Source: Raillietiella orientalis
Taxonomy: Eukaryota
DNA: 64,000 nt
Assembly: GCA_036172245.1 (NCBI GenBank)
Contig: JAYWIR010000009.1
Coordinates: 2,790,001-2,854,000, forward strand
Reading direction: 5' to 3'
The notes below the pieces were generated by a model. That model had not been told where the DNA came from and searched no databases. It worked only from the letters and a program-made list of their open reading frames with translations. Of the stretch, positions 1-60,600 are shown piece after piece. Within the stretch, counting starts at the first letter, position 1, and every line of letters begins with the position of its first letter. Position numbers and translations under genes: made by a program.

Positions 1-1256
1 TTGGAACACCGACTGAAACACTGGAAGCTCGTTGCCTCCCCATTTTCCCTTAGATCAGCTGTCGCTCGTCGGAGCAAGAGTGACTCCCACTCAGCAAAGC
101 GTATGACCTCACGACCGTAATGGATTGAGGCTACTTTTGAACCTTCATGGGTGACAACTCCGGCTCGCAGAAACGCTGAATCTCCAACTGCTGCCATTCA
201 TGAGAGCCCCGGCGACCTTAGTTCGGTTACTGGAACTGTCTTGGTAGGAAAGAGCAAAACGCTGCGTTGCTGCACGGGAAGACCTATAAAGTGAAGCACG
301 CTGCACGGGAAGACTACCTGGGCACAGAACATCTCACTCGCAGCCACTCTCAGCTCAATCCAGCAGAAAGAAAACAGCGATGGCCTCGCAGCATGGGAGA
401 TATCCTGCGAGACTGCGGGAAAGAAGAAGCAGCTGGGATGCTGCACGGTGGATCAACTTACTGCCCTCCTCACAGGGATTCTTCACTGGGAAGAGCTCCT
501 GGACATTCCTACTAAAGAGGCAGAAATCCCCTCACTGTTTATGGAGATTCCACGCTTCCTCTGAAGTGGCAGGAGTCGGAAATTGCACTGGGCGATCCCA
601 TGCAACGCACGAGTCCACCACTGGACTCGGGGGAGTGTATCCCTGGACTGTGCCCGGTGCGGGGATCGGGAAACCTTCCCCACCTGCTACTTCGTTCCCC
701 TCTTGAGTGTTCGGGGCGCTTCGCTGCGGTCCTCCCACTCCCGATGGGCAACGACAGAGTGGTCTTGCGGCGCCTCTTCGCGCGCGACTCCATGTCGCCT
801 GCAGCTCCTCTCTCAGCTCTGTGCACTGTGGCATTGGTGTCGGCAGCGAGAAACCGCTCCGAAAGAGTCCAGTCGAATGGTAACGTGATCGCAATCGTCT
901 GTTCTTTCGTGAGGGAGGCGGCAGGATGGCCACGCCTCTGCCAACAGAAGGAGGAGGAAGTTGCCAACATCCTCCATAGGATGCTGAGGACCTTGCCAGG
1001 AAGAAATCTGCGATCCCTTCCCTCCCCCCTCAAACATTTTTAAACTGAATTTTCGTGTTGTTTTGTTGACCCCTTTCCCCAATCCTCCTGTGGGGACCTC
1101 GTTTGGGAACTGCTCACGAGAAGCAGCTCCTCCCAAACGGCATTTCCCTTCGTCGTGGTCGTGTGAAACCACTACGAAAGGAGACATTTTTATATATAAT
1201 GTGACCATTTTCTTTTCTACATATTTTTACAATGAACGCCTCGGCGTGATCGGGCG
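1..1256 (+). mobile_element. L1/Tx1-like LINE 3' portion (zf-RVT C-terminus and 3' UTR), subfamily A1, frameshifted
   Basis: HWAIPCNARVHHWT..DCARCGDRE / LPHLLL at 583-700; reading frame ends at 1043; homologous to 23843-24790(-); ends in the 26-nt terminal motif at 1231-1256. Confidence 0.85.
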
Positions 1257-1529
1257 GAAATAACGTGAAACGTCCTGCAGCATGGAGCTGTTCTCCTGTT
1301 GTGATGCCAATGGTTATGGTTATTAAAGTGAAGCAGGTTTGCATGTGGATGGATGCATGCTGTGGGTCTTCGTGTGTCCATGGCAGCAACGCCGAAAATT
1401 CTGTCTACTGTTCTCGTGATTTCCCCCCCCCCCCTTGTTGAGTGCAAGGATTTGGGATACGATACCGAATTTCGGAGGAAACAAAATGAATCTTAATGTT
1501 GAAAAAAAATAGAATAAAAGTGTTGGGTG

Positions 1530-2830
1530 TCAGGACAGCAGGCCATGGCAGTTGGAATTCTCCAAAGAGGATACAACGACTCCCTTGACGAAACGACCGG
1601 CCTCGGAGCTGGACATCACACGAACGTAGGGAACCAACATCCAGCAACCGGTACACAGCCGTTCCTGCCTCCCGGCGGAGATCGAACAACCACAGGTTCC
1701 TCCGGCCGCGAGGAGTAGGAAGATCGCGATGACTCCCTCAGAAGGGATTGGGCATGAACCCAACTCGGAGCGCCATCGGCGAACATCTTGTAGGTGGTAG
1801 CAACTTGTCCCCGTGCGAGTCGGAGGGTGTCTGCTGCAGAGGAGTGGTCCATGAGGACGGTTTAGCTGTTTGATCACAGTTTAGCAGATCATACATTCCC
1901 AGAGCAAGCCGGAGTCTGTCCTTCCTCCTCGATGCACTCAATTCTGAAGGCTGAAAAAACCGTAGTAGCATGAAGGCACCCATTCTCTCTCCGGGAAATC
2001 TTCTCGCATCGTTTTTGACTCATGCAAGGGTCGGAGGAACATCTCATGGAGCTGATTATGATGATGTCTTCCGTCATCCATGATGGTTGCTGTCCGAGGA
2101 CCGAAACATCTCCACTTCTCCCGAGAGTTTGGTGCTGTTTGATGTGAAGCTTCTCTTCTCAGTGGTGACGAACACCCGTCAGCAGACAGCGAGCACTCCA
2201 AGGTCAGTTGCTGACTATTAGCTCACAGCCTTCAAACCGACTGGAAGATTCTTCCTTCCTTCCTTCACACGGGACTCTGAGGAGCTTCCAGTTCGCTTTC
2301 ATTTCCCAAGAACCCAGCACCTCTTGGGAACAAAGCCACTCTCTATCGTTAGAGGATTGATTCCGGAAGAGACTCTAAAAAGCGTAGTTGTTGTTGGCAA
2401 AAGCAGTGCCGGACATTCTGAGAGGTTTCAGACGCTGTGGTGATGGAGGCATCGTTTCCTGTGAGCATGCTCCACTATGTTTCTTCGCAACTTGGGCTGC
2501 AGCTTCCGTCAGCTCTCGTTGAAGATGCTGGTTATTTCTGACAGCAGAGACATGGTCATGGCAGTCAGAATTCCTTCAAAGAGAGTGCAAGGACTCCCCA
2601 GGCGGAGCAACCAGATCTGAAGAAGAATAGCCCTCTGGAGCCCGAGTCAACTCCCAGCAACCAATAAACAGCATTGCCTGCGTTTCCAAGGGAGTAGAGC
2701 AGTGGCGGGTTCCTCAATTTCCAAAGATTAAGAGGATCGCGACAGCGCAAGCAAAAGAGTTTGGGCATCAGCTCAACCCCAACTGCCGTCGACGCACATC
2801 TTGGAGGTAGCAGCAGTTTCTTCAGTGTGG
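1530..2830 (-). mobile_element. LINE ORF2 C-terminal remnant, family B (putative thumb to divergent C-terminus)
   Basis: LRLARGQVATTYKMFADGAPSWVHAQSLL..AGRQERLCTGCW matches the 57955-58734 ORF, with many synonymous differences in this frame. Confidence 0.6.
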
Positions 2831-3330: not shown

Positions 3331-3339
3331 TAACCATTT

Positions 3340-4000: not shown

Positions 4001-4849
4001 GTCTCGCTCCCTTCACCGTAGCGCGCAAAACGGGTGGCTGCGCGGTGCTCGTCTGGACGCCCTCAGGCGCCAAATTCTCCCTGCCGAGGGTCGGCCGAAA
4101 GGCTATGCAGTGTTCGCGAAACGCCTCCGCAGCGGAAGAGCAGTCTGCTGAGTGCTGGGGAACGGCCCGCCTCCTTAAGGGACGCTCACAGAGCTCTTAG
4201 ACGCCACCCACGCCCCGCGCAGGGATGCGTGTGAACTCTTCGAGTCAAGAAGCAACCCCGGAGGGACCGCCCTCGGAATCTGGGAAGGCTCCGGAGGAAG
4301 GGGTACGTTCCACACTTGTTCTTGGGGACGAAACTCAAATGTCTCGTGAAATCGGGAGATTTGTGCCGGGAGCAGAAGAGCTGCCTTCCCGCCTCCGACC
4401 TGGTGGACCATGCTGATCAAGCGAAAGGACAACGCTGGAAATCCCTCGGTCCGATCCGCGGAGAACCGTCTTCTTCGGGAACGCGACTTCTCGGGCGATC
4501 TTGCCGGAGCACGCGGTGCGACCCCCGGGGTCGTGTCCGCACCCTCGGTGGACGCCTGCATCTGAGCTCAGGTCACGGAACGCGCGACCTTATCCGTCTC
4601 GGAAAGGTCAAAACTGGCCCCGGGCGTGTCGTCGAAGCACCTAGATGCTCTCGAGAGTGACTTCTCGATCGACAAGAGACACGCGCCTCGACAAGTCGCA
4701 TCCTCGGAAGCTGTGATCTTCCTTGGCAGGGTCTTCTCTTCCTTGGAAAGGAAGGTAGGAGGAAGAGAGGAGGAAAGAGAGGGAGGAAATAAGGAGAAAG
4801 AAGGGAACAGAAGGACCCTTCCAAGGAGCGTCCTAGAACCGCATTCTTG

Positions 4850-7800: not shown

Positions 7801-7910
7801 CTCCATCTCTGTGGTGAGCGATGTACAGAGCGTTGTGCTACTCCGCATTCATGTTTTCATTATTTCCATAGTTGCCATCACTTCTTGATGCTCTCCTCAC
7901 TTTTCCATTG

Positions 7911-8600
7911 CGATTGTGCCGGGTCGTTTATTATAAAAATAATAAACAAACCATTTTTAAGGAACATAAAGGTGTAGGACCATCGGCCCTACATCGTCCA
8001 AAAAAGTTCGGAACCTGCTGAGTAACAGGCAAGCAGGCCGGCGAGGTTCCCCTCGGCAGCGGAGTGGGGAGGGGTCAAACAAAAAGAAAAAGGAAACTAA
8101 GAATATATACAAAAAATTGGGAGGAATAGAGGAGAGACCACCGGGAGCTGGAGGGCGTCCTCTGCATCCTTGTAAGGATGCTGTCAATTTCCATCCGAGT
8201 ATGCCCCCAGATGGAGCCATCTGGCTGCCGTCCGCAAGAAGATCAGAGAGAAGCAGATGGCGTCCCTATCGCGCCGTCCTCCTCTCTCATGACTCCAGGC
8301 CTCCACAATCCCACGTAGGCAGCAAAGAGCTTCTCTTCCTTCCAAGGATTTCGTAACCAACCTCCAATTTGATCGGCTGGTTACTGCACAGGTGCTCCCT
8401 GAGGGAGGGCAGTGCCTTGGCGAAGGAGATTCGTTCTGCCCACACACACGTGGTGGGGTGCACGATGGCGTCCATGCACACGCGGAGATGGAGGTTGTTT
8501 TAGCAGGAGTACAGCAGTCGCTTCCACATCTTCCTCCTTCATCTAGGCCCATGTGCGAACGGTTTCCTGCAACCAAGCACTACCGTTCATGGGCCGGCAT
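7911..8600 (-). mobile_element. LINE 3' portion, subfamily A2, internally deleted
   Basis: ALCCLRGIVEAWS..RGG..DRDAI..RWLHLG matches the 11.6 kb, 29.1 kb and 59.9 kb copies; shared 3' UTR; degenerate terminal motif at 7911-7932. Confidence 0.8.
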
Positions 8601-10039: not shown

Positions 10040-12006
10040 GGAAGGAGTTCCGTGCTTATGGCCTTGAGGGAAGATGACTTCCGTTTCCTGAGGCTGCAAG
10101 CTTCCTGCGGCTGCCCCTGGTCAAGTGGGGCATCCATCTTGTTGGTATTTTTCATTGATGGGGAACTCGGGAGGGTGGAGCTTTCGCGAAGGTCAAGTGG
10201 GTGGGCATCTACTCTCCGCGGACAATTCCGGAGTGCAACCTCGCCTGCCCCGGCGATTCCAACTTACTGCTGCCTCCGGAGCGCCGCCGGAATAGGGTAA
10301 CACAGAGGAAGCATGATAAACTCTTTCTTAAGGAGGGCGACCATAGTGGCCCCACCTGTTGGATCCGGAGAAGGGACCCGCTGGCATCCTCTACAGGGTG
10401 CAGGAACCTCAGAACAATTCGGATGATTCCTCCCCCTTGGAGTTCGTTGGGGGACTTCTGCCAGTCAGAAGCCTGGTCAGGTCGTCTCCAAAAAATGGAG
10501 TCGGCGATCGGCCCGTTCCTGGAAGGCAAGGTCCTCTTGCCGGAAAGGGCCGCGGTGTTGAACGCATTCGCGGCTCCCATCCTCCATCCCCTGCTTTTTG
10601 TTTTCCCCGTACCCCGCGAGTTGAGAAAGAGGACCAAGGACCTCCTGCGCATCGCCCTGTGGGGCAACGGGAGGACCCGTGTGCCTTTAAAGGACTTGTG
10701 CGCTCCGCGTCGGGATGGCGGTCTCGGTCCCTTGACGCTGGAACGGATGGAAATTCAGTTGCAATGGAGAACCTTGGCCATCGCAGCGAAGTACTGGAGC
10801 ATCCATTGATGCGTTCCGGCCCGCCTCCTCGCCAGTCCTGTATCCAGAGCGGGAGGGCTCTCCTCTTTTCTTCTGTGCCCCGGCCGGAGAATAAGATGCG
10901 ACCTTCTCCTCGGACGCATGGCCACCTGGCCAAGGAGAACGGCTGGATGGCCCGCATGGCTGGAAGAAACAGTTGGCACGTGGGAGAAGTTGAACCAGTC
11001 AAGTGGTGAACCCTGGAACCGCCTGCGATCCGGCATCTACACCCGCTGCACGCTGCAGAAGATGCTCGGGTGTCCCGCCAAGAGCACGTGGGCGGAGACG
11101 ACCCCACTGACCACGGCGCTGCCCTTCTTGAGGAGGGCGCTCGGTAGCAGCGGAACTCCGAGGTGGCAAGTCTCCCGCCGGATAGTGGGCAAGGAGAAGC
11201 TGCTAAGCAGTTGGACCATGAGGGAACTGGCTGACGCCGCGACCCTGAGCGTCCTTCCGCGAGGATTACAGAGATGGGGCGAGCTGTTGGGCATCCCGTC
11301 GGATGACCTAAAGTGGCCCCCGGTGTTTACTGACTCATCTACCCTCCCCTCAAGTGGCGGGAATCGGCGCTCCTGCTGTTGCACTGGGGTCTCCCCTGCA
11401 ACGCGCGCCGCCACCACTGGACGTTGGTTAAGTGCAGCGAACTGTGCAGTGTGCGGGGAGAAGGAATCCCTCCCCCACCTGCTAGTGGATTGCGCTGCCC
11501 TCCAGCCCTTGTGGGAACGACGCTCCGGATCCCGGTCGGCGGCCTCCTCAGAGACGTTGTACGCCTCCTCTTCGTGCGGGACGCCCTGCAACCAGCCTCA
11601 GCCCTGGCAGCGCTCTGCTGCCTCCGAGGGATTGTGGCTGCGTGGAGAGCAGCCAACAGAGGAAGCAGCGATAGGGACGCCATCGTACACGCGGGTCGCT
11701 ACCTGCGAATCGCGATCGCATGGTCCCATCTGGGAGCTATGCAGAGGGACCTCGAGGGCATCCTGGAAAGGATGGTCTCTTCCTCCAGCGGACAGTGATC
11801 CCTTCCCAGCCCTCCAAAGTGTTTCTTTTTTTTTTGTTTCCTTTATTTTTCTTTTTGTTTTTTCCCCTATCCCCCTCCGCTGCCGAGGAGTGTCGCGCCG
11901 ATCTGCGCTCCGGCGACCCGGAAGGTCCAGAGATGTGTTGACCGTAGTGTGGCCGCACACCACGAATGTACAGTGTTTTTAATAAACTCCCCGGCGTGAC
12001 CGGGTG
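10040..12006 (+). mobile_element. 5'-truncated L1/Tx1-like LINE, subfamily A2 (RT remnants, thumb, zf-RVT, 3' UTR)
   Basis: ERAAVLNAF..ALWG..LCAPRRDGGLG; HWGLPCNARRHHWT..CAVCGEKESLPHLLVDC; terminal motif at 11981-12006. Confidence 0.9.
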
Positions 12007-12099
12007 GCACTCCCCCTTTGTACTCCCTCACCCTAACGCAGGCAGTCGAAGAGTTTTTTCCCCATTTTTTTGTTTGGCACTTCTTCAACTTCACTTCAG

Positions 12100-14197
12100 T
12101 CTCGTCTCCAGACAACAAACAGCTGTGTTCTACTTCTTGAGAGTGATTCACCTGCGGAGTGTACGCAGCTCCAAGCAACGTTGGGATTTTCGACATTATC
12201 GCAGCAAAGCCAGGAAGTCATTTTCAAGAAAGATGAACATTTCGTTTTCGTCAGATAGCATCTTCCTGTGGAGGATGCGAGATCACATGAAGTGATACGA
12301 GGTAGGGATTTCTGACATCTTCCATGGTTTCCTCGATCTGTTCGGTGAAGCCCTGGACGGTCCAGGCCGAGGCACGACTGCTTCTGGCTGGGATGGAAGC
12401 ACCGCAAGGAGGCTTCATCACCATGGCTCGAAAGCTCGCTCATCCTCTCAGCATCCTGGAAGGCTTTTCCGTTAGACCAAGGGTCTGCTCCATGAACGGT
12501 TGGAGTTTCACGGGGCCAAGTGCTGGCAATCTAGAGACTCGACTTTGCGGCTCCGAGCTGGGTCGCTCCGGGGAACTCCCTAGCAGGTGATTGTAGCGAA
12601 GGATCGACTTGTTTAGGTACTGAACCGCAACCCACCATCTTCCTCCCATGAGGATCACTCTGCGAATGTGGGAGGAACACGCGAGATCCTCAGTTGCCAA
12701 CAGCAGCGACGTTCAGTGATCACATCTGGGCCTTTGAGAACGTTCAGACCGTGGTGTAAGCAGGATGGCGGTCTGAGAGGTGTTCCCTGTTAAGAAGCCT
12801 AGCAATCGACCCATGGGGGCGCGAGGGTCTGGCCGTGGCCGCATATCTCGGCAGTCTGTATTTGGAGGTCGCGCGGATAGGGAGACTTCATGCTCGCGGG
12901 ATGAAGCTCTGATTGGAGAAACTGGATCTCTTAGTGCTCGGTGGTTCTTGAGCTTTTGGTTCCTTTCAGGAAGAAGCATGGAGCAGTTGGGTTAACTCCC
13001 AGGTCGTCGCCTGAGAACTTGCATCGATGGACAGGAATTTTCGGAGAGGGCTCAACGCTCAAGGCGCCGGAGAGGCACCAGCAAATTCACCGGCGACAGC
13101 TGATGACCAGGATCTCTCGCACCCGCTGCAACCTGATGAAGAATGGTGATGGGAAGACCCTATGTTTCGCCCTATCTTTGAACCCTGGTTCAAAACAGCA
13201 GCTTTTTCTGATCCGTGGGTTCGAATCGCGCAGCTGCCAAATTCCTTTAGCCACAAGGGCAAGCGACGACAGCTGGCAGCCGGCGAGGCGGGAGCCTTCC
13301 TGCACCATCGTGGGAAAGACGAAACTCCTTGGGGCTGGAAGACGCGCGAGCTGGCGGATGCTGCCACTCCGTGTATCCAGGCGAAAAGATTCCTCGAAGG
13401 AAGTGCCTCCCCTGAAAAACTCGTGATACCTCCCTTCTGCTTGGAGCCTTCTGCCTTCCGGCTGTCTTGGAAGCAGACAGTGATGCTCTTACTGCACTGC
13501 GGAGGACTCCAGTGCAACTAGCGCCGGCACCTCCTCGTCTCCTGGGGAGGTTGCATCCCCAAGCTGTAGCTACAGGTGCAGGTCGGTGGGGGTTTCCTCT
13601 GCACCTGGTTTCCGACTGCATTACCCTCCGGGAACGTTGGCGGAGGCTGCACCAGCAGGAGACCGCCCGCGAGCGGGAACTCTTTTTGCACGACGGACTC
13701 TCGACAGACTCAGTGGTCGCAACGATGGGCGGTTGTGTCTGAGGCATCTCCACGGCCCTCCATGTGCCCAATGCGCCGACGCAGTGAAGGGAGGTCATCA
13801 TCATGACCGCTGCTTACATGAGGGCAGTGGCAAGGAGGCCTCACCTCGATGAAGGAGATCACCGGCATCCAGTGCCGGTTTTGAAGTGAGTGAATGGCCG
13901 ACGCCGGCGACCTTTGTTCCCGGTCTCCCTTTATTTTCTTTCGTTTTTGTCTCCATTTCCCACTCCTTTTCGCTCTGGACTTTTCCCGGTGCCTACGGAG
14001 CGACACCCAAGACCCTTGCTGCATCCCACTCGTATTTCCACGTTTTTCTGTTGTCCCCTCCATCCCGTTCCGGACTTTTGGAGATCCCGACCTGCGTGTC
14101 AGTGGACCATCTCCTTCAACTTCCCTCATTTTCGGCTGGCAACTGTGTTCCCAACTGGTTTGTTTTCATGAAATAGACGCTCAGGCGTGACCGGGTG
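12100..14197 (+). mobile_element. 5'-truncated LINE, subfamily A3 (RT C-part, zf-RVT, 3' end)
   Basis: WKTRELADAATP, LLLHCGGLQCN*RRH, PLHLVSDC; terminal motif at 14172-14197. Confidence 0.75.
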
Positions 14198-15470: not shown

Positions 15471-15912
15471 GATGGTGCAATCACGTGAAAATTCGTGCCC
15501 GTTCCTTTTCTCCCACCGGGGGGATTCCAGTAGTCCGAGAGGGAGCATCGCTTTCCTCAGGAAGGGGCCAATATTGGAAGAGGCCACGGCGGGTCTTTGG
15601 CAAAGCACACGTGGTCGCTATCCCTCTGCCAGAAGGCTTCCTCGAAAGGATCGTGGAAGAGATGTGTGGGAGGGTTCACCTTCGTTCGAGGTGATTTTCG
15701 GAGGGTATCCTCAAGAGAGCGACCGAACCGCCGGCTGCTTCCTCTCGTCCGGCACCGTAAGAGAGGAATTCGCAACCTGAAAAGAAAAGGAACTCTTCTT
15801 GTTCTCGGGCATCCTCAAAGAAGACCAGGAACGTCTCCGCTACCTTTCCAGCCCCCCTCAGCGCACGGGGACCAGTTCGAAAGCGTGGCAAGCTCCCAAT
15901 AAAGACTGCCTT
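15471..15912 (+). repeat. Left arm of a 442-bp near-perfect inverted duplication (APE endonuclease fragment)
   Basis: Reverse complement of 16520-16961; one mismatch noticed near 15894. Confidence 0.95.
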
Positions 15913-16099: not shown

Positions 16100-17600
16100 C
16101 ACCTCTCGTCGCATCTTCTAACACGAAAGCAGGTCGACTTGTGCCATCTGCCATGCTTCCGAGGATGCTGCAGTAGGATAAAAACAGGAGCGGGACCTTT
16201 CTGTTCTCGTAGGGGCTGTTCGGCAGGCCCTCCAGGAAATCACCTGTGACGGACCTCGGCTTGATGTCCATCACCAAAATAAGCGAGCAGTCTGGAGACT
16301 CTCTTCTTATCACTGTGGTGACATGGAAGTGGGAGCCGTGGAAAATCGAGCCCATCCTTGGGAATTTTCATTCCCGAGAGGAATCCGCGGTTTCTTTGGA
16401 CCTTTCGAAATGGGAAGCAGTCCGGTGGTGGAGCGACCTCGGGCCAAGAAGAGAGGATTGTCGGCGAAATGAAAGTCTGTTTCGTCTTCGCAGATTCGAC
16501 TTTCCCGTGATTGGATGCAAAGGCAGTCTTTATTGGGGGCTTGCCACGCTTTCGAACTGGTCCCCGTGCGCTGAGGGGGGCTGGAAAGGTAGCGGAGACG
16601 TTCCTGGTCTTCTTTGAGGATGCCCGAGAACAAGAAGAGTTCCTTTTCTTTTCAGGTTGCGAATTCCTCTCTTACGGTGCCGGACGAGAGGAAGCAGCCG
16701 GCGGTTCGGTCGCTCTCTTGAGGATACCCTCCGAAAATCACCTCGAACGAAGGTGAACCCTCCCACACATCTCTTCCACGATCCTTTCGAGGAAGCCTTC
16801 TGGCAGAGGGATAGCGACCACGTGTGCTTTGCCAAAGACCCGCCGTGGCCTCTTCCAATATTGGCCCCTTCCTGAGGAAAGCGATGCTCCCTCTCGGACT
16901 ACTGGAATCCCCCCGGTGGGAGAAAAGGAACGGGCACGAATTTTCACGTGATTGCACCATCACAGCGCGCTCTTCCAGAGGGACCGCGGGCGGAGAGACA
17001 TGTGACGGTCACTTCGAGGTCCACAGGCGCATGTGGACTTGATCGCATCCTCGGAAGATCGACTCTCCAGCGTCCAATGGTCGATTCTTGAGGGACCCCC
17101 GTACCATGCAGGAGACACGAGAGAGCGCGAACCGGCTGGACGCCCTTTTCCCGCTCAGGTGGTTTGGTCCCCGAAGTGGACTTGCTTCCAGCTTCCAGGG
17201 ATGCTATCAAAACAAGGAGCAGGTCCGGGGTCCCGCCTCCGTTTCAGGGGCGCACGCCCTTCCGCCCTGCCCACCAGGGTTTCTCCTTGTTGGCGCGCCC
17301 CTGGCGAAACGACGCTTCAGTGTCGGTCAGGCACACCGGCGGAGGTGACAAGGAGAGCTTCGTTCTAGAGGATCCTTGCAGGAGCGGATTCCATGCGCCT
17401 TCCTCCAGGCATCTTGAAGAGACGCGGAAGAACCAGAGTGCCAGAGCAGAAGATTCCAAGCGCCTCGCAAGGAGAGAGGCGATCCTCTCGGGGTGTCCCG
17501 ACATCCCTGCGTCCTCTCTTTCCGATCGCTCCCAACAGCCTCCTTCTCTCCCCAATTTGCTCCCTTCCTCCTATCTTTTCAGAGGAAGGCCATCATTCTG
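16100..17600 (-). mobile_element. Decayed LINE: probable ORF1 tail and APE endonuclease
   Basis: HVVAIPL..GRVHL (~GVAIL..GR), GGYPQ (~xYAP), LLVLGH (~LGDFN), ESRI (~SRID). Confidence 0.5.
16520..16961 (-). repeat. Right arm of the 442-bp inverted duplication
   Basis: Reverse complement of 15471-15912. Confidence 0.95.
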
Positions 17601-18280
17601 CGACCGCGGAGAATGATCAGCGCATTAAGCGGTTCCCGAAGCGGTCCCATTCCTGATTGCTAATTCTTCCCTAAACTCCTTGGAGCCGAATGGACTCGAA
17701 ACGAATTTTCCTTCTCCTTCCCGTGAGTTCATCATCCTCAGAGGAGAGCCCTTCCATCATGTCTGGACTCTCATCCCGCAGATCCTCTTGATTCATCAAA
17801 AGAAGAGCGTTCCTTTATTTGGATCGCTCCCTCAAGAAACGCCGATAATTTGGAGTAAGTGCTCATTGATTGACTTTGGGTTTGCCCTCCGCTGCTTTTC
17901 ACATTCGCCTCACGCAAGCTAGAAAAAGAAGAAAGCATCTTTGGTGAATTTCAAAAAAAAGTAGAAGAAAATTTTTCTCGGATTATACATTTTTTTTTTT
18001 TTTCGTGTGAGCGTCTGTGTGTTTCTCTTCCTGGTGCTCCTGATACGTCTTCCGGTGTCAGGAGGCCTCACGTCACTGGAGGACATCATCAGACACTTTG
18101 CGTCATCATCAGCCCATGAGATCATTCTTTCCGCTGACGGCTTCGAGTTCCAATTTTCCTTGGATTCCCTTCGACGGCTTCATCTTCTATCCGCAAGCAC
18201 TGTCGATCGGGAGGACGAACTGACTAACAGCAACGTAGCTCCAGCAGAAACGACCATCTTCCCCACCAGCAGCCAGGCAT

Positions 18281-19280
18281 TCACCTGGGCAAACCGAACA
18301 CCCGCCGAGTACCACTGCAGCTGCAAAATCTGGGAGGCTCGCCGGGACAGCTCGAGGCGAGCAGGACGAGGACGTGCAACGATGCTGACCGGAATTCTTC
18401 GCAGGTGGAAGAAACGTCCATCCGCGCAAGGCAGCAGCAAGGGACCGCCGCTTCCCTCTTCGTCAGCGGGTGTTTCCGTAGCAACGGCATCCTCGGGAAA
18501 AGAAGTAGGCGTCGCAGCCGCCACGGCAAATCACACACCTGCCGGCAAAAAAGCTGCCAGAAGCCAGGGAAGGTCATCTTCGCGAGGAAAGCCTGGAAGG
18601 TGGCACCTGGGTTTGAGGAGCCCCCGCGCGATGACACGGCAGCACTTCGGGAGTACCACGAAGCGACCATGCGATGCAGCCAGCCAGCCAGCCAGCTTTC
18701 CCGGCATCGCCTGCTCCAACTCTGGAGAGACACAGGACGAGGGAGGACCGAGACCAAGGCTATCGTTGCCGAAGATCAGAGGTCATCCAACTGCGCCACC
18801 GCCCAAGCCTCAGCCTGTTCATCCCTCAGCTCTGCAGCTGAACCTCAGCCCGGCTTCATCTTCTTCCTCTTCGCAACGAGGTTCTTCTGCGCTTCTGCCG
18901 TTCACGACGCCCGAGGCAGAGCCCCTGCGGCGGAGCTGCGGAACGAGAGGGGCCATCTCACCCGGCCGCGCATCGACTTTCCTCGAGTTCCCGGAGAAAA
19001 CTCCCCGATTCAGCGCGCTTCCCGATCGACGCTTCCGTCCCTGGCCGCCTTCGCCGTGCACCGCGCGCCCTCTCGCAACGGCGACCGAGGTCACCGCGCC
19101 TCCGCGAGCGCGGCGAGCGCCGAGAGATGCGCGTTCGGGACGCTGCAGCGGGCGGGTGCCCGCGTCCCAGCTGCCCGAGGACGCACCCCTCAGGACGTGC
19201 TCGGAAGCAGGCCACACCCCTCGCGGCTCACCGAGACCCCTTCCTCGCTGGCCACTCTCCCTCCGCCACGTGCACACGCT

Positions 19281-19313
<33 letters not shown>

Positions 19314-20202
19314 TGATCTCCTGACCGGAACGAGGGGCGTGACCGCCGTCCGAGGGAGCGCGTCGCCGCCTTCCTCGAGCGAGGTCCGCCGGAAGGGGCA
19401 GAGCCGGAAGGGGAACGCGGAAGTGGCGGGGTCAGGACGATCGCGGGCTGACCGGGTCGCCTCCACATCACCGGCGCTCCGTGTCTTCCGCTGTCCCCTT
19501 CGCCCGCCTCAGGAGAACCGACGCCACCTCCCGATCGGTCCACAGCCCTCGTTTGCTCACGCGTCGTCTCTCTTCAGAGGTCCCGCCGCCAGCGAGAAGG
19601 TTCACTTGGCGGCTGGTGGTCCTTTTTCCAGCGACGTCCAGGGCCCCTGGACTCGGTCTCGCAGATGCCTGACCCTTTATTCTTGCACAGCCCGAACCGC
19701 GGTCCGGGTCGGCTGCAACAGCTGGAGATTCGATTCGCCAGTCGTCGATCCAGCAAAGCCGCAGAGCGCGGCCATCTTGGGTCCTGCGTCCTCCAATCCC
19801 AGCGTGCCGGGTACGAAACCCGACGCGGATGCCGAAGGCGCGGGTGCGCACGGGTTCGGGCGTCTGAGGCAGGGCAGCGGAGTGGACAAGGCTGCGGAAA
19901 CTGGACTTCGCGCTCGTGGAGGCGGGGTCGGACCTCAGCAGCGACCTTCGCACCAAGTGCCCCAGCGGAGCGTTTTCCTTCGCTCTTGTTGGCGGGGGCT
20001 GTTCCCCAGGAACGCTCAGGAAGATGGATCGGACCTTGGTAAGGAGCTCTTCCCCGAGCGACCAGATTCCGACTGCTTTTCACGTGTCTCCAGCCGGGTG
20101 CTGAGAATTAGCTGGGTGCATCCTTTCCTCCCCATTCTCCTCCTTCTCCCTTTCCTCCTTCTCTTCTCCTTCCTCCCTCCCTGTTCTCCCCCTCCTCTCC
20201 TT
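18281..20202 (+). repeat. Left arm of a 1922-bp near-perfect inverted duplication (RNH C-end, ORF1 remnant, (CAG)10)
   Basis: Reverse complement of 35966-37887; identical ORF translations; one mismatch noticed near 20117. Confidence 0.95.
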
Positions 20203-20809
20203 CCCTTCCTCTCCTTCCTCCCCTCCTTCCTTTCATCTTGAGAGATGTGGAAACTAAACTTAGCGCTCGGCGAAGTGAGGTCGGACCTCAGTAGCGACCA
20301 CTACCCAAGTACCCCGAGCGGGGATTGTTCTTCGAATCGTCTTGGCGTCTGCATCTTCGGTTGTCGTCGTCTTCATTTTCTTTAGTCGCTCCGAACAGGC
20401 GGCAGCATGCTGGGGTGAGGAAGGCTACGTGAGGCGGGTGGGTTTCTCTCGAGGGTGAGTGCTGGAGAGCCTTCCGGCTTCCGGTTCAACCTCTTTGACG
20501 AACGCTCTTTTCTTGAGCACCGATGGTGCTCTTCGTCGGGTGGCTCCCGCTTGTGGGATACGCGGCAGCGATAAGGGGAGGCCATCCGGCAGCCGGGATG
20601 CATCTGCTGGATCCGGCACTCCGATAGCCTTCCAGTCATCCGCAACGTTCCATTTGCGAGGAAGAATGTTTGAAACACGTCATCCTGCTTGGATCTTTCC
20701 ATTCTTTAACGAGCTTTGTGTGCAGCTTGTTTTTTTTTTTTGTTATTGTTGCTCCTTCCAGAGCTTGGATGCTCTCGCATCGTTTCGGCTCCTTCTCTCT
20801 CATCAACCG

Positions 20810-32550: not shown

Positions 32551-32599
32551 CTCGAGTCGCGCTTACCCTCTCTGCCACCTCTCCTGCCTCCTCACAGAA

Positions 32600-33850: not shown

Positions 33851-33879
33851 TTCATCGCAAAAACTTGGAAACTCATGGG

Positions 33880-35760: not shown

Positions 35761-35965
35761 GGACTCCTTCCGGGATCGTTAACTGCTATTCGGGGTTCGT
35801 CACCCTCACCTGCCTCGCACCGACCTCGGCCGCGAGCAACCGTGTTGTTGCCATCACAAACCAATGGCTGTGCAGCCATTCCGACGCCGCCCCTCCCCCT
35901 CCGGGGAGGAACAATGCTTCTTCAGCACCCAGGAAGAGGAAAGAAGGAAGAAGAGGAGGAGCAGA

Positions 35966-36854: not shown

Positions 36855-36887
<33 letters not shown>

Positions 36888-37887: not shown

Positions 37888-38310
37888 TTGCTCGGCTCCC
37901 GAAAATTCGATCGGGGGTTTCCGCCGGAATTTTTTCGGCTTCGGGATGGGAGGAGACGCGCTTCGCCTTGCCATGCGACCATGCGACCTTCTCTCATCCG
38001 GTAGGGCCGCAGGCTCGTTTTTGTGCGGCTGCAGATGGAACCTCAGGGCCTGTTTTGAGATCAGCGCGTGCGCCCTGAGAAGCAGCCATGTTCAGGATCT
38101 ATGCGGAGCCGGTTGCCTCGGTTTCCCTGTACTGCAGGTTTCCTTCCCCGAGGAGATCTCTCCATCTGCCGCTTGGGAGCGATCCATTTCAGGAATGGCG
38201 GGTTCGCCTCGCAGAGCTTCCGGTTCGCTCCCCCTCGTCCGGGAACGTCGTGCCCGCCGTGCTGCGACTGGTGCGCCCCCGTTGGTATTTCGGGGAATGG
38301 AGAGGTCGCG
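37770..38310 (-). pseudogene. RNase HI-like domain remnant
   Basis: RNTNGGA (~YTDG), QYRETEA, TCNDADRNS (~GNExADRLA). Confidence 0.45.
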
Positions 38311-40110: not shown

Positions 40111-40169
40111 ACTAGAGCTGCTGCGGCTCCAGCCGCTCCAGCTTCAGGAGATAGAGACCGCCGCCTGCT

Positions 40170-41150
40170 AAGGAAGTAGAGAACGGAGGGAGAGGACAAT
40201 AAAGAAATAAAAAAACGACGGGTAGGTAGGAACGATGGTCTTTTGTTTTATTCGTGCCTTTCTTCCTAGAAGAGGCTGTGCATGGTGACGACCTCTCCGA
40301 TGACTTCTGGCAGGCGAGGACACTCCTGCAGCTGTCCTCGTATCGGCGGCCGCCATGCTGGCGACTTCTCTTCGCTGCGAACGAGACTCCAGCACGTAGT
40401 CGCGATCAACAGATCGTTGCATTCACGGCTCCCGTCTTCAGTCCGCCTTGAGCGAAGAAGCGCCGCGGCAAGTCTGAAGAGGTGCCCTCTGGGTGGCGGA
40501 CTGCCGAGGCGAGTCTCCACTACATGTCCCCCAGGGCACTTCAGTCCAACAGGAGGTGCGAGATCGATCCCATCCTACCGCACCTGGAACAGTTCCCATC
40601 CTCTGGAAAACGAGGTGCCTGCGTTGGTTGCATCGGAATCCCCCAGTGCAGACATCAGCAGCAGAACATCCTATGGTTCCTAGCAGAGCGGGAACACCGA
40701 CACCTCCGCACACAGAAAAGGGACTACGAGTTCTTTGAAGAGAACAACGAGGAGGAGATCGCTCCACCGAAGTCGTGGTCCACCGTTTCCGGGCAACAAG
40801 GAGTGGCGGAGTTCACCAGCTCGCTCGTCTTTTTAGCAGTCGAGGAGTTTCACGACTCTTGCAATGTTTCAGGACAACTTTCACCCCACCGGTTGGGTGC
40901 TCCAATGGTTTGACCGGAGGGCAGATAGTGCTGCGGCAAGACGGCTATCCGGGACCACTGCATCCACTCCTGCGGGATATCTCCTACAAGTTTGCATAGC
41001 AGTTTTCCGCAGCCGACTCTGTAAGTGGACCTCTGGGTCTACTTCCAGAGTACCTTCCAGTGCCGCCTGCCGTCAGGCTTTGAGGGAGGTAGATCTGCGG
41101 CTGAGCTATCAGGAGTGACGACAATTGCCTCAGGGGGAAACCAAGTCCAG
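40170..41150 (-). mobile_element. LINE 3' portion, subfamily A4
   Basis: HWGIP/CNQRRH across a frameshift; collinear homology with 52200-53170(+). Confidence 0.75.
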
Positions 41151-47124: not shown

Positions 47125-48440
47125 ATCGCCCGTTCATCTCGTGTTAACTATTTGCTAAATTCACTCTTAAATCTCAGTCAGCACCAGAGGATATAGGCAG
47201 CTTCCCTCTCCTTCCGTCAGGAACTCTCTGGCTCCTCGGGACAGGCACGGTGAGCTGACGGCACGGATGCAGTCTAACCGGCTCCTGGATATTCCAAAGG
47301 GGCGCGGGTTCCCGTCGAGGATAGGCAGAAACCTCTTGTAGCGCCTCAAGATGTGCCCGTGGCAGCTGTCCCTGAAGGCAGTGCTGTGACTGCGGAGGCA
47401 GCGCCTCCTTAGGCAGGTCCTCTCGAGATAACCACCTATAAATTGAAGGGTTACAGGCACCCTCCGGTGGCGTGGACAGTGTGAAAGGGCTTTGTGAGCC
47501 CTGCCTAAGGAGGCAAACGGTTCTTCAGCACTTAGCGAACCACAGCGTTGCGGAAAAGTAGGCAGTAACCATCTGTATCCCCTTGCTACAGTAGATACGC
47601 AAGTTCAGAACGTTCGAGAGTTTGTCCTCCCATGAATGTGTGCATATGACTCGCTGCTGGCAGGCGCTAAGACAGGTCCTCTCGAACGACACGTGTTCAC
47701 ATGTGATCTGTTGCAGCTTTGCCGATTCACCCTTGCCTACCACCCCCTCTCCCTTACTCTTCTTCCTTTTTCCTTGCTCCTCTTCCCTCTTCCTCCTCCT
47801 ATTTCTCACTTCCTTCTCAGGAGAGGGAACGTTCCACCCTTGCCGACCACCGAATGTCAGAGGTCACACCGAGGTTTGCAAGCGCTTTCGTTGCCACAGG
47901 CCGTCCATACGTGTCTGTGTTTCGCTTTGGTGTTTTCCTGATCTCCTTCCACTAGAGCCCACCAGCATGGCTCTCCCGGTAGGAGCGGTCGACATTTTGA
48001 AAACGAACCAACAGAGTGGCGGGCGAAGATAATGGCTGCTTGCTGGCGGAGAAGCAATCCGCCACCCTCTTTCTTTGACCTTTCCAAAAATCTTCGAGCG
48101 AGTGGCTGAGTTGGAGCGCCCCTTTGCACCAGACAGCACTAATTCGACGGAGTCTCCTGTCAGAACGAAACAATGGAGTTCCCCTTGGAGTCCCTCAAAG
48201 CTTTGCTTTCACTTTTCCCTCTCGCTTCGTTTCCGTAGCAACGGGAGCTCCTGTGAAAGCAGCCCAGGTCATAACTGGGAAGTTCCTCAGTATGGGATTT
48301 TCTTTGGAAAGGAGTGCTCCAAGCATAGGAACCCTCAAGGATCAGAAAGCAGAAGGTGGTCCACTGCAAGGGTGCGGAGTCTCCCGACCAGCCAATACAG
48401 GAAGGCGAGCATGGCTCCCACCGAACAAGGGATACGTGGG
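47125..48440 (-). mobile_element. Family B LINE C-terminal remnant
   Basis: TAFRDSCHGHILRRYKRFLPILDGNP resembles TAFRLARGQVATVYKMFLDGSP; YWLVG resembles YWLLG at 2.66 kb. Confidence 0.45.
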
Positions 48441-50449: not shown

Positions 50450-51200
50450 TGGGAGGTTAACGTGAGGACCTCAGGGTACCCGAGATTTCGTGCTTCCTTC
50501 GCGGGCGGGTGCGCGCGGCTCTCGGACCGACCGGCTCCGGAAACGCACCGGCCTTCCCTTTCTCGTAAGCCTCTGTCCGACACCCACACGCCGCCTTTAG
50601 AAGGAAAATTGCGAGGACGGTGGTCATTGCAATGAGGCCAGGAAGGCTGCCGCGTTGGCGGCCGTGAGGCTGCGTGGTCTCTGCTCGCGGCATCAAGCGT
50701 TGCGGGTTCGAATTCCCCCAGGGACGCGTCGACACCGAGAAATGAGGGGTATGCCGTCATGGGTTCCAAGTCCCCCCCCCTTCGAGCAGAATGACGCTGG
50801 TTGGCCTCGAGAGGCTTCGGGCCTTGCCTCCGTCGACTTGCAGGGATTGGAAGTCGACCCTCCGGGTTCCTTCCAGGAATCAAGGAGCTCTTCCCCTCCG
50901 GTTGAAAAAATGAAACCCTTACTTCCTCGGAGGGGACTCTCCACAGCGTGCAATGAAGCTGACTGATAACCTCAGAGGGGGGATGCTCCTCTAGAGTGTT
51001 AGGAAGAGAGCTGCTCCCTTCGGGGATCCCTTGGGATAAGAAACAATGGAACGGCGGTCCCCTCCGAGGGGTCCCCCCGGAAAGAATAAGGAGGAGGGTA
51101 TCTCTGGGGTCCCTTCCGAAGGGTAAGGGAAAAGAGGAGTCCTTCCTCCGTAGCCTTCCTGGATTCACAGGGTGGTCCCTCCGGGGTACCCTCTAACTTG
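50450..51200 (+). mobile_element. Decayed APE endonuclease C-half and linker
   Basis: Nucleotide homology with 26540-27050. Confidence 0.55.
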
Positions 51201-51339
51201 AGGAGTCAACACGCACCCTCGGGTGGCATGGGCGGTGCTTGAAGAGCTTCGTGGGTCCACCCTAAGGAGGTGGACAGTTCTTCAGCACCCTTTGAGAACT
51301 AAAGAAAAAAGGGACGGCAATTTGCGGACGGATGCCGGG

Positions 51340-52199: not shown

Positions 52200-53317
52200 G
52201 ACATCAGTCCTCACTCACTTCTGGTAGCCCACCCGCAGTTCCCCTGTCGCCCCATAAACAGGCACTCCTGACTTCAGAAGGCTCTGGAGTCGTGGGTCAC
52301 TCTTTGGAAGTTCACCCAGAGGAACTGGGTCCGCTGCAGAATCTTCTGTACAATGGATATATATCCCGCAGGACTGGACGCACTGGTCCCGGATAGCCTT
52401 CACGTCCCTTGTCGCAGCACTGTCTGCCCTCAGGGCAAACGACGACAGCAGCCAACCGGCCGGATGGGAGTTCTCCCGCAGTATCGCAGGAGTCGAGAAA
52501 CTCCTGGGCGGCTGCAAGGCGAACGGGCGGGCTGGTGAGCGCCACCACTGCGTCGGTGGATTGAGCTGCTTGGTGCATCCCTCGAAGAACTCGTGGTCCC
52601 TCCCCTGGGTGTGGACACCTCCGTGTTCCCGCTCCGGTGGAAACCACAGGATGTCCTGCTGTTTCTGCAATGGGGTTACTAGTGCCATCAGTGCAGACAC
52701 CCGATTTCCGGGTGAGTTGCCTCCCCGAACTGTTCCAGGTGCGGGGCAATGGGATCGCTCCCGCACCTCCTGTTGGACTGCGGTGCCCTGGAGGACACGA
52801 GGCAGAGACTGCCTTGGGCGCTCCGACAACCGCATGACCACGCTTTGGACTTGCGGCGACGTCTGTTCGCAGAAAGTGGGCTGAAGAAAGGCTCTTCGAT
52901 CGCAACCATCTGTTGCGTCCGCGCGTCACGGTGACAGTCCGTCACATACTGGAGTCAGTTTCTCGGCGAAGAGAGGCCACCAGCATGGCAGCAGCCCTCA
53001 TGAAGACAGCAACAAGGTAATCCCATCTGCCAGAAGAAGTCTCCAGGGAGATCTCCACTGTCCAGAACAGCTTTTAGAAAAGAAGGAAAGTCTTTAACCA
53101 AAGACCCCTGTCCCCACCCTTCCATCTTTCTATTTTTTTATTTATTGTCTCCTCCCTCCGTTTTCTACTTTTCGGAAGCCGGCCTCGTGCAGGTGGTCAT
53201 CTCGGATGAACTTTTTTTTTTTTTTGACATCTCACGTTTTTGAGGGTATGGGTGGGGGTTCTTTTCTCTTTCTTGTAGTTTGTCTTTTTAAAATAAACGT
53301 CACGGCGTCAACGGATA
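52200..53317 (+). mobile_element. LINE 3' portion, subfamily A4
   Basis: CSRCGAMGSLPHLLLDCGAL; terminal motif variant at 53292-53317. Confidence 0.8.
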
Positions 53318-55430: not shown

Positions 55431-55639
55431 AAGTCTTCGAGCGGGAGCAGCGCCGCATGTGGGCTTTAATCATCCCGGGCATCGCTTGCAGAAAAATCGC
55501 AGGAAAGGAAGGAAACAATGAAATCCAGGAAGAAGCGAGGCACGAAGCATGAAAGAACAAAGGGATGGATGGAGTTGGTGTTCCTCCTCCGTCTGCTAAC
55601 GGGGCTTTCATGCATCCTTGAATTTAGGGATGCTGCGCG

Positions 55640-56130: not shown

Positions 56131-56539
56131 TCCCTACCGTCCTTGGAACCCTTCCTCACCCCAACAGTCCAAACGGACGGGGCTGGAAATCCGCGCTCCC
56201 TTTTTTCCCTCAGACTGCCTTCAGTGCTTATCCCTAAAGTTCCGAAGAAGATCCTCAGGAGGCAATGCGCTCGCTTTTCCCCTTCCCGTCGGTCCTTGGG
56301 CGACCGCCCTACGGCCACTCCTCTCGCGAGCAGTAAATGTCAGCATCTGGGTTCTCCACATGCGAGGAGGGGGAGAGAAGGAGAAAAGGGAGGAAGAGGA
56401 GAAGTAAGGAAGGGAAAAGGAGGAGGAGGAAGAGGAAAAAGGGAGGAAGAAGAAGAGGAAGAGGCGGAGAGCACTCAAATCACTCGGCTATCCACCTCGG
56501 CATCTGCAAATCAGATCGATGCTTGCGTTTCCAATCACT

Positions 56540-57950: not shown

Positions 57951-57954
57951 GACC

Positions 57955-59400
57955 TCAAGAAGCTATTATCAAACTTTTCATGGGTGAGGAGTCTGTTCTG
58001 CTAGAACGCCGAGGCCTCTCGCGCCCTGTAAGAGTGTTGGTTTTCATGGACAGCAAACCATGGCAGTCGGAATCTTCCATAGCGGATGCAGTGACTCCCA
58101 TGACGAAGCAGCAGGCCTCGGAGCTGGTCACCGCTCGAGAGTCGAGAGCGAACACCCAGCAACTGGTACACAGTCGTTCTTGCCTCCCAGCGGGGATCGA
58201 ACGACCGCAGGTTCTTCCGGCTGCGAAGGGTAGGAAGATCGCGATGGTACCCCTTAGGAGTGATTGGGCGTGAGTCCAGCTTGGAGAGCCGTCGAGGAAC
58301 ATCTTGTAGACAGTGGCGACTTGTCCTCGTGCGAGTCGGAAAGCAGTCCGTGAGGGTAGGCTTTGATCACGGTTTAGCAGATCGCACATTCCCGAAGCAA
58401 CGGAGGAGTCATGCATAGCGATCCTTACTCTGAGGTGTGAGCCATGGTGGTTGATGTGGAAGGCAGGTCTGATCTCGAGGAGCAGACGAGCTTGGTCCGA
58501 AAGAAAGGCGAACCGGTGACCTCTCCTAAGGGTGATTTCCAAGTAGTAGCTGATGAGGTCCCACACCATAGTTTCGTCCTCTACCGCATGATCCCCCGTC
58601 TTCATCATGTAGAGTGGAAGAGGAGAGAAACGCCGCCGACGGACATTCTGGTTCGCTACCTTGAATTTCCCAGACGGCAAGAGTTCGAACTGATGGCTGC
58701 CTGCCCATCGTCCAAATGCCGTAAGCGCGTCCATTGTGAAGGCAGGATTTTGCCAGAAGTCCTTCTAGGAAGGTGCTTTCCCAGGTACTAGAAAGTGGTA
58801 ACAAAATCTTCTTCACTGTCACTTCTGTCTCCGGAAGTTTCTGGGGAAACCCCATCATGAATAAGTGCATCTCGCTGGATGTATTGACTTAGACTTTAGT
58901 TCATAATCCAAGAGATTAACAGTTTTTCCAGCAGCTTAGATGCAGCTTCACCCGACTGCCGTACGAGGCTCCTTTTGGCCGCTGGGCTGTACAGAGATGC
59001 GTTTTTGTCTCTTGGTGGTGAGAGGAGGCACTTCTTCACCATTCAATGAAGACTGCAATCCAGAAATTTGATATTCCATCTCTGGACGAGCTCTTGAAGT
59101 TTTCGAAATTCACAGAGCTAAGAAAGAAAGGGATATCCAAGTAGCCTGTTCCCTCGCAGGATAGAGACCACTGTTCATGTGCAACTCGACCTCTTCCAAA
59201 ACGTCGGGGCTGTTCAGATGAGCCATCAAAAGTTCAAGTCCGAGAGGTTTTCCCATGTGCTTTGGGACCTCCGACAATGAGGCGTCGTCTCGTCTGACCT
59301 CTCCGACTTCTTCGAAGCTCCTGGAACCCGTGGAGAACTCGGCGAATCCGTGGTGGAGCGTAGCGCTCCTTCGGATCGTCAGTGACACCATGACGTGGAT
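57955..59400 (-). mobile_element. Family B LINE C-terminal region (includes the 259-aa ORF 57955-58734)
   Basis: VPKHMGKPLGLELL (~PxxxGGLGL) upstream; C-terminus homologous to 1530-1950. Confidence 0.65.
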
Positions 59401-59559
59401 GCTGGATCACAGTTTCCCCGCCGACCCAAATGGATGCACGTCTTCATGACGCCCTCGCCTGAGACGATGACCAAACTGCCAGCAGCATGCCAGAAACACA
59501 CCATGGCCGCTTGACTTCGGACCTGTTTTTCGATGTCATTTGATTGTACTATGGATTGA

Positions 59560-60600
59560 CACCCGGTCACGTCGGGGCGGTTATTTATAAAAAATAAAAC
59601 TAGGACATCAGAGGAAAGATGAGTGATTTTGCCATGTTACAAGAATGTACAAAAAGAACTTGTCGAGAACCCACGCGCAGGCCGGCGAGGTTCTCCACGG
59701 CAGCAGAGGGGAAGGGAAGGGGAACCAACAAAAATAAACATAAAACAAAACAAAAACAATTGAGGAAGGGGTTGTGGTCGGGCAAGGATTTCTGTGTGCT
59801 GGAGGACGTCCTCTGCATCCTTGGAAGGATGCCGGCAAGTTCCTGTTTTAGGATCCCCAGATGGGGCCATCTTGACGCTATCCCCATGAAGAGGACAGCA
59901 AAATAGATGGCTTCCCTGTCGTCCTGGCCTCCTCTGGCGTAGCTCCATGAAGCCACGATCCCACGTAGGCAGCGAAGCGCCGCTAGGGATACGGCCGGCG
60001 TAAGGGCATCGCGCGAAAATAGGCGTTTCAAAATGCCTCTAGGGTTGCCCTCGGGGATCCGCAGGGACACGGCGAAGCGTACCCACAGGGGACGGAGGAC
60101 AACACAATCCATAAGCAGGTGCGAGAGGGACTCTCTTTCGACGCACCTGATGCAGTTGAGACTCACCTCCTCCCCGGGTCCAATGGTGTCGGCTGGCGTT
60201 GCACGGGAAGCCCCGGTGCAACAACAGGGTCTCCAACTCCTGCCAATTTAGGGTGAGGGTGGCACTTTTCCAACACTCTGGGAGCCCCTGTACCTCCTCT
60301 GGAGGGATTTGTAGCAGCTCTCCCTAGCGTAGTGGTCCTTTTGGTGGGAAACTTGGAATTGCGGCGTTTGTCAGCTCCCTAGTTGTCCACGCACCCAGAT
60401 ATTTTTTTCTGTTCCCTATCACGCAGGTCACTTCGTACCTCACTGATGGTTGGCTATCTATTGCTCTCCTTAGGGAGGTCAGCACTGGGGCGAGGGGGAT
60501 GAAGGGGGCCCACAGCAGATTCCAGGTGTTCTCCAGGACCTCCGTCAGCGGCTGGTGAGCATATCAGCTGTTCCGTAGGCAGATGCAGTCTGCCTCTCCC
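59560..60600 (-). mobile_element. LINE 3' portion, subfamily A2
   Basis: LLLHRGFPCNASRHHWT, NCIRCVERESLSHLLMDC; terminal motif at 59560-59585. Confidence 0.9.

Follow-up and report, generated by a model that had tools for sequence, protein, structure and literature searches.

In a monocot lineage of the L1 clade of long interspersed nuclear elements (LINEs), the last 45 nt show a divergence of 0.144 as compared with 0.570 overall, and these ends feature a stem-loop with compensatory changes as well as short interspersed nuclear element (SINE) partners (PMC3472496). A LINE/SINE pair within the L1 clade has also been described in algae, and L1 families without a 3' repeat were counted as 5/15 in green algae and 9/233 in flowering plants (Table 1, PMC3472496). 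The “stringent” LINEs of the L2 type bind a cognate stem-loop via the region of open reading frame 2 (ORF2) that lies between the endonuclease (EN) and reverse transcriptase (RT) domains (PMC4176376). Here, we analyse a 64-kb stretch of DNA (contig JAYWIR010000009.1, positions 2,790,001 to 2,854,000 of the forward strand), termed the window, in which 11 copies of a 26-nt motif are found. The consensus of the motif is AATAAACGCCCCGGCGTGACCGGGTG, i.e., AATAAA plus 20 GC-rich bases. Going by the comparisons within the window, the 26-mer is the common 3' terminus of several diverged LINE families and forms an island of conservation. The reading we favour, to which we assign a rough probability of 0.55, is that of a stringent-type 3' tail that also holds a poly(A) signal, in short, a “dual tail”.

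Eleven copies of a terminal motif

Allowing for up to 3 mismatches, AATAAACGCCCCGGCGTGACCGGGTG matches 4 sites in the window, versus none in 100 dinucleotide-preserving shuffles. An earlier note on this DNA, which was made from the sequence only, had listed seven clear copies of the motif and two degenerate ones. An nhmmer profile built from the seven recovers all of them (7/7, E 1e-6 to 2e-4) at the positions and on the strands reported, and it adds three copies, termed J, K and L, all of which lie on the minus strand; together with one degenerate copy (H) the total amounts to 11. Ordered by their mismatches to the consensus, these are B (11981-12006, +), which is the best preserved copy with 1 mismatch, D (23843-23868, −) and G (59560-59585, −) with 2, C (14172-14197, +) with 3, A (1231-1256, +) with 4, E (35226-35251, −) and J (23371-23396, −) with 5, F (53292-53317, +), K (28535-28560, −) and L (28787-28812, −) with 6, and H (7907-7932, −) with 9 mismatches.

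The two degenerate copies fared differently. The copy placed at 7911 (−) is real, spans 7907-7932 and terminates a LINE body related to those of B and G. The second one, at about 47126-47151 (−), is missed by nhmmer as well as by a covariance model, lacks the T-rich lead-in of the other copies and has no LINE similarity upstream; it was dropped. With its filters off, the covariance model scores the 11 copies at 25.2-39.6 bits, as expected by construction, since it was built from these very copies. The next match in the window reaches only 10.7 bits, and hence, there is no further copy in the window. A weak match of the model at 63289-63310 (−) was rejected as a motif copy.

The copies had also been described as free of indels. 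In a MAFFT alignment all 11, including the degenerate copy H, indeed occupy 26 columns with 0 gaps and a mean column identity of 83%. Yet, this is weak evidence: at an indel rate of ~11-15 gap openings per kb per copy only ~2-4 indels are expected in 7-10 copies, and the motif search was ungapped, such that indel-bearing copies would have escaped. The absence of indels therefore adds little.

A scan of 185,579 prokaryote genomes with AATAAACGCCCCGGCGTGACCGGGTG yielded 0 matches, which rules out a bacterial origin only. Rfam gave 0 matches for the whole window at the gathering score and 0 for positions 11850-12040 at E values up to 1, and the motif string was not found in a literature search.

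An island of conservation across LINE families

The untranslated regions (UTRs) upstream of the motif had been assigned to different subfamilies, and the elements do fall into different families. At least 4 UTR types carry the same tail. The C-terminal domain of ORF2 is 57-61% identical at the amino acid (aa) level between A and D, which belong to the same family (family 1), versus 28-39% between family 1 and family 2. Even A and D are only 73% identical over 1 kb of DNA, with ~24 gap openings per kb. The 26-mer follows a different rule: its pairwise identity is 0.72 within families (9 pairs) and likewise 0.72 between families (46 pairs), as compared with 0.44-0.57 for the neighbouring 26-nt blocks (−26, −52, −78 and +27) and 0.49 for random 26-mers of the window. 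The motif is thus conserved far beyond its neighbourhood, as had been supposed, and alignable, conserved sequence gives way abruptly, exactly at AATAAA, to sequence that cannot be aligned.

Since the identity is the same within and between families and the neighbouring blocks are at random level, the 26-mer must have been nearly identical in the masters of all families, although the UTR beside it changed beyond recognition. Within the copies themselves, the motif has decayed at the same pace as other sequence, which is what dead DNA should do. Given this island of conservation, the 26-mer is the element's own terminus and not a target site.

The pattern could also reflect history without continuous selection. 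LINE RNAs might have recombined or served as templates in turn, such that the terminal 26 nt of one family were repeatedly transferred to other bodies by recombination or template switching, or the families might be younger than their decay suggests. The sharp boundary at AATAAA would suit such a transfer, and much of the divergence is post-insertion decay, as illustrated by the low identity of the same-family pair A-D. On the other hand, such a history sits poorly with at least 4 UTR types bearing the same tail and with the drop in ORF2 identity from 57-61% to 28-39%, and if a tail does spread between bodies, this alone would mean that mobility depends on it. We regard an explanation by history as distinctly unlikely.

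The motif closes decayed L1-like LINEs

Upstream of A, B, C, D, F, G, H and L, searches by tblastn with the ORF of LINE copy B and with pieces of other copies identify one and the same C-terminal domain of ORF2. The similarity is found ~75-550 nt upstream of the motif in these 8 of the 11 copies; in G, L, H and D it reaches to ~75-105 nt before the motif, which indicates that the 3' UTR is short. Copy J has a body of at most 446 nt and shares with A and D a UTR piece located ~70 nt upstream of the motif. No LINE similarity was detected upstream of K, where the body is at most 226 nt long, and no LINE coding similarity in the 685 nt upstream of E. J, K and E are short or devoid of LINE coding similarity, and judged by sequence similarity, 9 of the 11 motif copies demonstrably reside at the ends of LINEs. 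The view that LINE copies from several diverged families end in this motif is borne out by the ORF2 similarity upstream of eight copies and the UTR piece of J.

The bodies can be delimited as follows. In family 1, fragment A covers ~306-1256 (+) and fragment D 23843 to ~24792 (−). In family 2, fragment G extends from 59560 to ~60683 (−), fragment H from 7907 to ~8605 (−) and fragment L from 28787 to ~29872 (−). LINE body B (10159-11980, +) retains decayed RT motifs, the post-RT domain and a CCHC motif at 11443-11493, and it may extend further upstream. Body C (13241-14171, +) shows weak similarity to the ORF2 C-terminal domain, and body F (52302-53291, +) comprises a CCHC motif at 52731-52781. 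The same C-terminal domain is also present in bodies M (38951-40162, −; family 2) and N (40174-41050, −; related to F), whose ends are lost: no recognisable terminal motif was found in M, and N, which is without the motif too, has its 3' part cut off where M starts. A candidate at 38900-38930 (−) in body M was rejected, since it aligns with the UTR of B and not with the motif.

B, F and G (60104-60154, −, in the latter) retain an unbroken CCHC pattern, C-x2-C-x(6-9)-H-x(3-5)-C, which is embedded in a conserved context and precedes the motif by 488, 511 and 519 nt, respectively. In LINE copy B the RT motifs B and C, though decayed, are still alignable, and the stretch before the motif (10159-11979, +) contains 607 codons that are open but for a single stop. 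Compared with 1.84 billion representative proteins, this ORF matches two, P0004 (E 6.7e-49, 52% identity over 226 aa) and P0005 (E 1.2e-4). P0004 is encoded on a contig of 2870 bp and bears an RVT_1 domain (4.7e-24); the part aligned to B overlaps the end of this domain and continues past it. P0005 combines Exo_endo_phos, RVT_1 and zf-RVT domains, the last of which aligns to B at E 6.5e-4. In the PDB the best match of P0004 is human L1 ORF2p (E 7e-40), followed at a distance by R2 (E 7e-17). The best database relatives of P0004 (at most 30% identity) carry zf-RVT, and the named ones come from tick, frog, fish and plant. A pattern scan of prokaryote genome contigs for relatives of P0004 returned 82 pattern matches, of which 0 were confirmed.

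Domain searches in the window itself yielded so little that the LINE assignment could not be presupposed. Pfam recognises 0 families in the 123 stop-to-stop ORFs of at least 150 aa, and among the 224 ORFs of 95-149 aa it gives one weak, irrelevant match in the 150 located up to 42.2 kb. RVT_1 was found neither in these ORFs nor in the 3 kb upstream of B, D and F with stops read as X. The same read-through yields zf-RVT for B at E 0.076 only, i.e., under the curated cut-off, and nothing for D and F. The YADD motif was not found anywhere in the window, and no endonuclease domain was detected in any window copy, B being truncated. The window protein P0003 has 0 matches in the PDB, and a protein search with P0002 returned 0 matches.

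Taken together, ORF2 similarity, the CCHC motifs and the matches to P0004 and P0005 identify the motif-bearing elements, as far as such comparisons reach, as decayed, 5'-truncated L1-like LINEs. The L1-like affinity, which was suspected before, is upheld by the zf-RVT-type CCHC motif and by the 52% identity of B to an RT-bearing protein that is nearest to L1 ORF2p; this placement stems from the PDB and domain comparison of relatives.

Flanks downstream of the motif

Homology among the copies stops at the final G of the motif. The first downstream block is 0.48 identical versus 0.49 for random 26-mers, and the flanks are therefore unrelated, as had been noted. The further claim that the copies lack poly-A stands with a qualifier. 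The longest A run after the motif does not exceed 4 in any of the 11 copies, a poly-A tail is present in 0/11, and the best preserved copy B continues with GCACTCC without any adjoining A. Yet, the flank positions +1 to +4 are 57% A (25/44) versus a background of 21.7% (binomial 4e-7 in a post hoc test), and this enrichment fades by +20. L1-type endonucleases nick at T-rich sites. The A-rich first flank bases fit either the complement of such a nick site or remnants of an oligo-A of 2-4 nt.

Terminal tandem repeats were not found at the motif ends. Likewise, no target-site duplications (TSDs) emerged: when k-mers of 9-14 nt were taken from the initial 25 bases of each flank, none of them recurred at a plausible 5' junction (0/11 copies), and a mismatch-tolerant search for the youngest copy, B, gave 0 matches versus 0.2 expected. 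Given the age of the copies, the lack of TSDs is unsurprising.

These flanks bear on the idea, raised as an alternative in the earlier note, that the 20 nt after AATAAA are host DNA, i.e., a target site that is short and conserved, or else a repeat of the host, beside LINE insertions. Relatives of L1 from the Tx1 group are site-specific (PMC3472496), and K and E have no detectable LINE upstream. Several points speak against a host sequence: the flanks after GGGTG are at random identity, a target of 20 nt with nothing conserved beyond it is implausible, the T-rich lead-in is present in every motif copy, and the motif keeps a fixed distance (488-519 nt) and the same orientation relative to CCHC. 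The absence of matches in prokaryote genomes speaks against a bacterial source only. A host origin of the 20 nt is highly improbable, and the shared target site was discarded.

A proposed dual 3' tail

The motif begins like a polyadenylation signal. In each of the 11 copies, exactly 20 nt follow AATAAA up to the end, the hexamer itself bearing 0-1 change, and T accounts for 51% of positions −30 to −1 before the motif. In poly(A) signals the hexamer typically lies 10-30 nt from the cleavage site, and the spacer in between is not constrained in sequence. By hexamer distance and U-rich lead-in the tail in the window has the canonical geometry of a poly(A) signal; yet, its spacer of 20 nt after AATAAA is as conserved as the hexamer itself. 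It is this conservation of a normally unconstrained spacer which leads us to favour the dual tail.

The dual tail implies the following course of events. L1-like LINE families of the apurinic/apyrimidinic endonuclease (APE)/RT/CCHC type would once have been active in this GC-rich genome, and all the copies now seen would be old, 5'-truncated and neutrally decaying. In the active masters the last 26 nt would have been held constant, whereas the C-terminal domain of ORF2 and the rest of the 3' UTR, which is short and T-rich, diverged. Together with the U-rich stretch that leads into it, AAUAAA may constitute the element's poly(A)/cleavage signal and direct 3'-end formation. The next 20 GC-rich nt, which extend up to the expected cleavage distance, may serve for protein binding and as the start site of target-primed reverse transcription (TPRT), i.e., for “stringent” recognition, and they may fold as a short CCCGG/CCGGG hairpin. 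cDNA synthesis would start at or a few bases from ...GGGUG, with little or no A tail being copied, and the A-rich first 2-4 flank bases would be the complement of a T-rich L1-type nick site or a very short oligo-A remnant. Specific binding and start at the 20 nt would explain both the constancy across families and the missing A tail. We infer protein binding, the RT start point and the use of AAUAAA in 3' processing from the sequence pattern; RT recognition is suggested by the mode of conservation along with the precedent of known stringent LINEs.

A more radical version holds that the poly(A) tail was wholly given up and that a minimal 20-nt tail, placed between AAUAAA and the cleavage site, is all that recognition and the start of reverse transcription require, a signal used by several diverged families as one cross-mobilising guild. 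If true, stringent recognition would be the ancestral state of the L1 clade, also far beyond green plants. We consider this possible but doubtful.

A rival reading sees a 3'-processing module only, composed of poly(A) signal and spacer, which is alike in all families through the shared host machinery; RT would start on a very short A tail, and there would be no specific RT recognition. AATAAA, the U-rich lead-in (51% T) and the end 20 nt downstream are what such a module predicts, short tails could have left behind the 57% A at the first 4 positions of the flanks, and the hairpin, as outlined below, is not supported. Known spacers are unconstrained, however, whereas here the 20 nt are as conserved as the hexamer, and neither the lack of A runs longer than 4 nor the best preserved copy B, which has no adjoining A, agrees with starts on an A tail. 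We judge a mere processing module to be unlikely.

Several observations weigh against the dual tail. All copies are dead, and accordingly, their variation cannot show selection; the term “family-wide” rests on one window of 64 kb. L2-type families each recognise their own cognate loop (PMC4176376), and a tail shared by diverged families is therefore not the textbook pattern. A SINE partner was not identified, and no head resembling a tRNA or another RNA gene occurs in the window, which is small for such a test. Folding adds to these points. Folding energies of the 26-mers range from −0.9 to −8.9 kcal/mol, and their z values versus shuffles from +0.61 to −1.84; in a context of 100 nt, the hairpin is part of the minimum-energy fold in 3/5 copies; in both registers 78-79% of the cells are paired, which equals the shuffled mean, with 0 and 1 double changes; and the consensus fold of RNAalifold amounts to −0.72 kcal/mol only.

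The hairpin as such is possible, yet unproven. A stem CCCGG/CCGGG with a 5-nt loop can be drawn and extended with one bulge, and the best-folding copies reach −8.7 to −8.9 kcal/mol. The earlier note had pointed out that A and C keep pairing via G-U, which is correct; nevertheless, folding and covariation are no better than in shuffles and controls. It had also stated that E and F pair poorly. This applies to F, but E folds at −8.9 kcal/mol, albeit in another register. Family 1 differs from the general consensus at 2 positions, namely 15, which is in the loop, and 25, which turns G-U into G-C. These differences appear compatible with the stem and are far too few to count. The covariation test is low-powered, as the copies are dead and the family consensuses nearly identical.

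Genomic setting of the window

The window has a GC content of 52-63%, a nearly normal CpG observed/expected ratio of 0.86 and a strongly reduced TpA observed/expected ratio of 0.39, and it harbours CAG and purine-rich low-complexity runs as well as old, diverse LINEs. In these traits it is reminiscent of the coccidian Sarcocystis as portrayed in PMC4337577, although this likeness is no more than a guess. Throughout the window there is no Pfam domain in ORFs of at least 150 aa, no tRNA and no Rfam match. The region is gene-poor, repeat-rich and non-vertebrate-like in composition.

Some of the motif copies have particular surroundings. Twice a second short element on the same strand ends 226-446 nt after a LINE end (D then J, 23371-23868; L then K, 28535-28812). 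By our estimate ~0.5 such pairs are expected by chance; the paired ends could be due to chance or to a preference for inserting near earlier copies. LINE copy G is bracketed by inverted arms (59096-59282 and 60787-60975, 81% identity), and its insertion may have hit an element of the foldback or DNA-transposon-like kind.

Other repeats are found apart from the LINEs. An inverted duplication of 1961 bp and 99.3% identity connects 18271-20227 (+) with 35937-37897 (−), its arms being 15.7 kb apart. Each arm contains an open frame of 735-758 aa, rich in S, P, R and A and with a (CAG)10 run, which has no Pfam domain; a database search with P0001 (758 aa) gave 0 matches. The two arms could have arisen by segmental duplication in recent times, or they could be an artefact of the assembly. 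A second inverted repeat (15471-15912 and 16520-16961) comprises 442 bp at 99.8% identity, with arms ~600 bp apart. Dispersed repeats of 75-80% identity and without LINE similarity occur at 1515-1914 and 58029-58405, and at 4152-4301, 47435-47531 and 51141-51288. Purine-rich, GGAGGAAGA-like low-complexity arrays occupy 32596-34315, 35945-36042 and 56378-56464, and the AT skew is +0.23 over 32-36 kb. Near the window end, a 21-nt tandem repeat (63341-63468) consists of ~4-6 units with 78% identity.

Implications

The motif is a sharp marker of the true 3' boundary in badly decayed LINEs and thus helps repeat annotation, an aid that matters in a window where Pfam recognises no domain in ORFs of at least 150 aa. 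Moreover, the argument gains an apparently non-plant case according to which the L1 clade was originally “stringent” and became poly(A)-dependent only in some lineages. With AATAAA in each copy, the LINE ends could supply premature polyadenylation sites to host genes. Current concepts are unchanged by this finding.

Comparison with known systems

Human L1 and Alu reportedly possess a 3' stem-loop beside the A tail, which has been proposed to help retrotransposition. The likeness consists in a structure with a proposed role in retrotransposition that is situated right at the 3' end of a member of the L1 clade. Human L1, however, depends on a long poly(A) tail, whereas the window copies have none.

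The 3' tail of stringent L2-clade LINES is said to form a stem-loop, a finding credited to Kajikawa and Okada in 2002. For the L2-clade elements UnaL2 of the eel and ZfL2-1 and ZfL2-2 of zebrafish, an ORF2-bound 3' stem-loop is needed for RT start, and like the copies in the window they lack poly(A) (PMC4176376). They differ in belonging to another clade and in that their tails end in short tandem repeats, (TGTAA)n, which are absent from the ends in the window. Furthermore, each L2-clade family recognises only its cognate loop, whereas in the window one tail serves several families.

Closer to the present case are the L1-clade families without a 3' repeat (PMC3472496), the copies of which, like those in the window, end without (A)n or another microsatellite. 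These families are given there as counts, and a terminal motif common to several families is not stated in the available part of that source.

The closest match is provided by the LINE1-1_ZM group of monocots and L1-1_CR of green algae (Ohshima 2012, PMC3472496), in which, as in the window, diverged L1-clade families keep their 3'-terminal sequence. In those elements a stem-loop was proposed as the RT recognition site, and the contrast of 0.144 versus 0.570 in divergence corresponds to that of 0.72 versus random-level identity in the window. The plant and algal elements terminate in poly(A), share their tails with SINE partners and show compensatory changes in the stem, whereas the copies in the window lack poly(A) and covariation, and a SINE partner was not identified. 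The tail in the window is 26 nt long and starts with AATAAA, as compared with tails of ~45-80 nt, and the host, going by base composition and the lack of genes resembling those of plants, is apparently not a plant, in contrast to the plants and algae of the earlier cases. We consider the tail in the window to represent the same phenomenon as in the L1 elements of Ohshima 2012; it differs in that it lacks poly(A), is very short, starts with the hexamer and is common to several diverged families.

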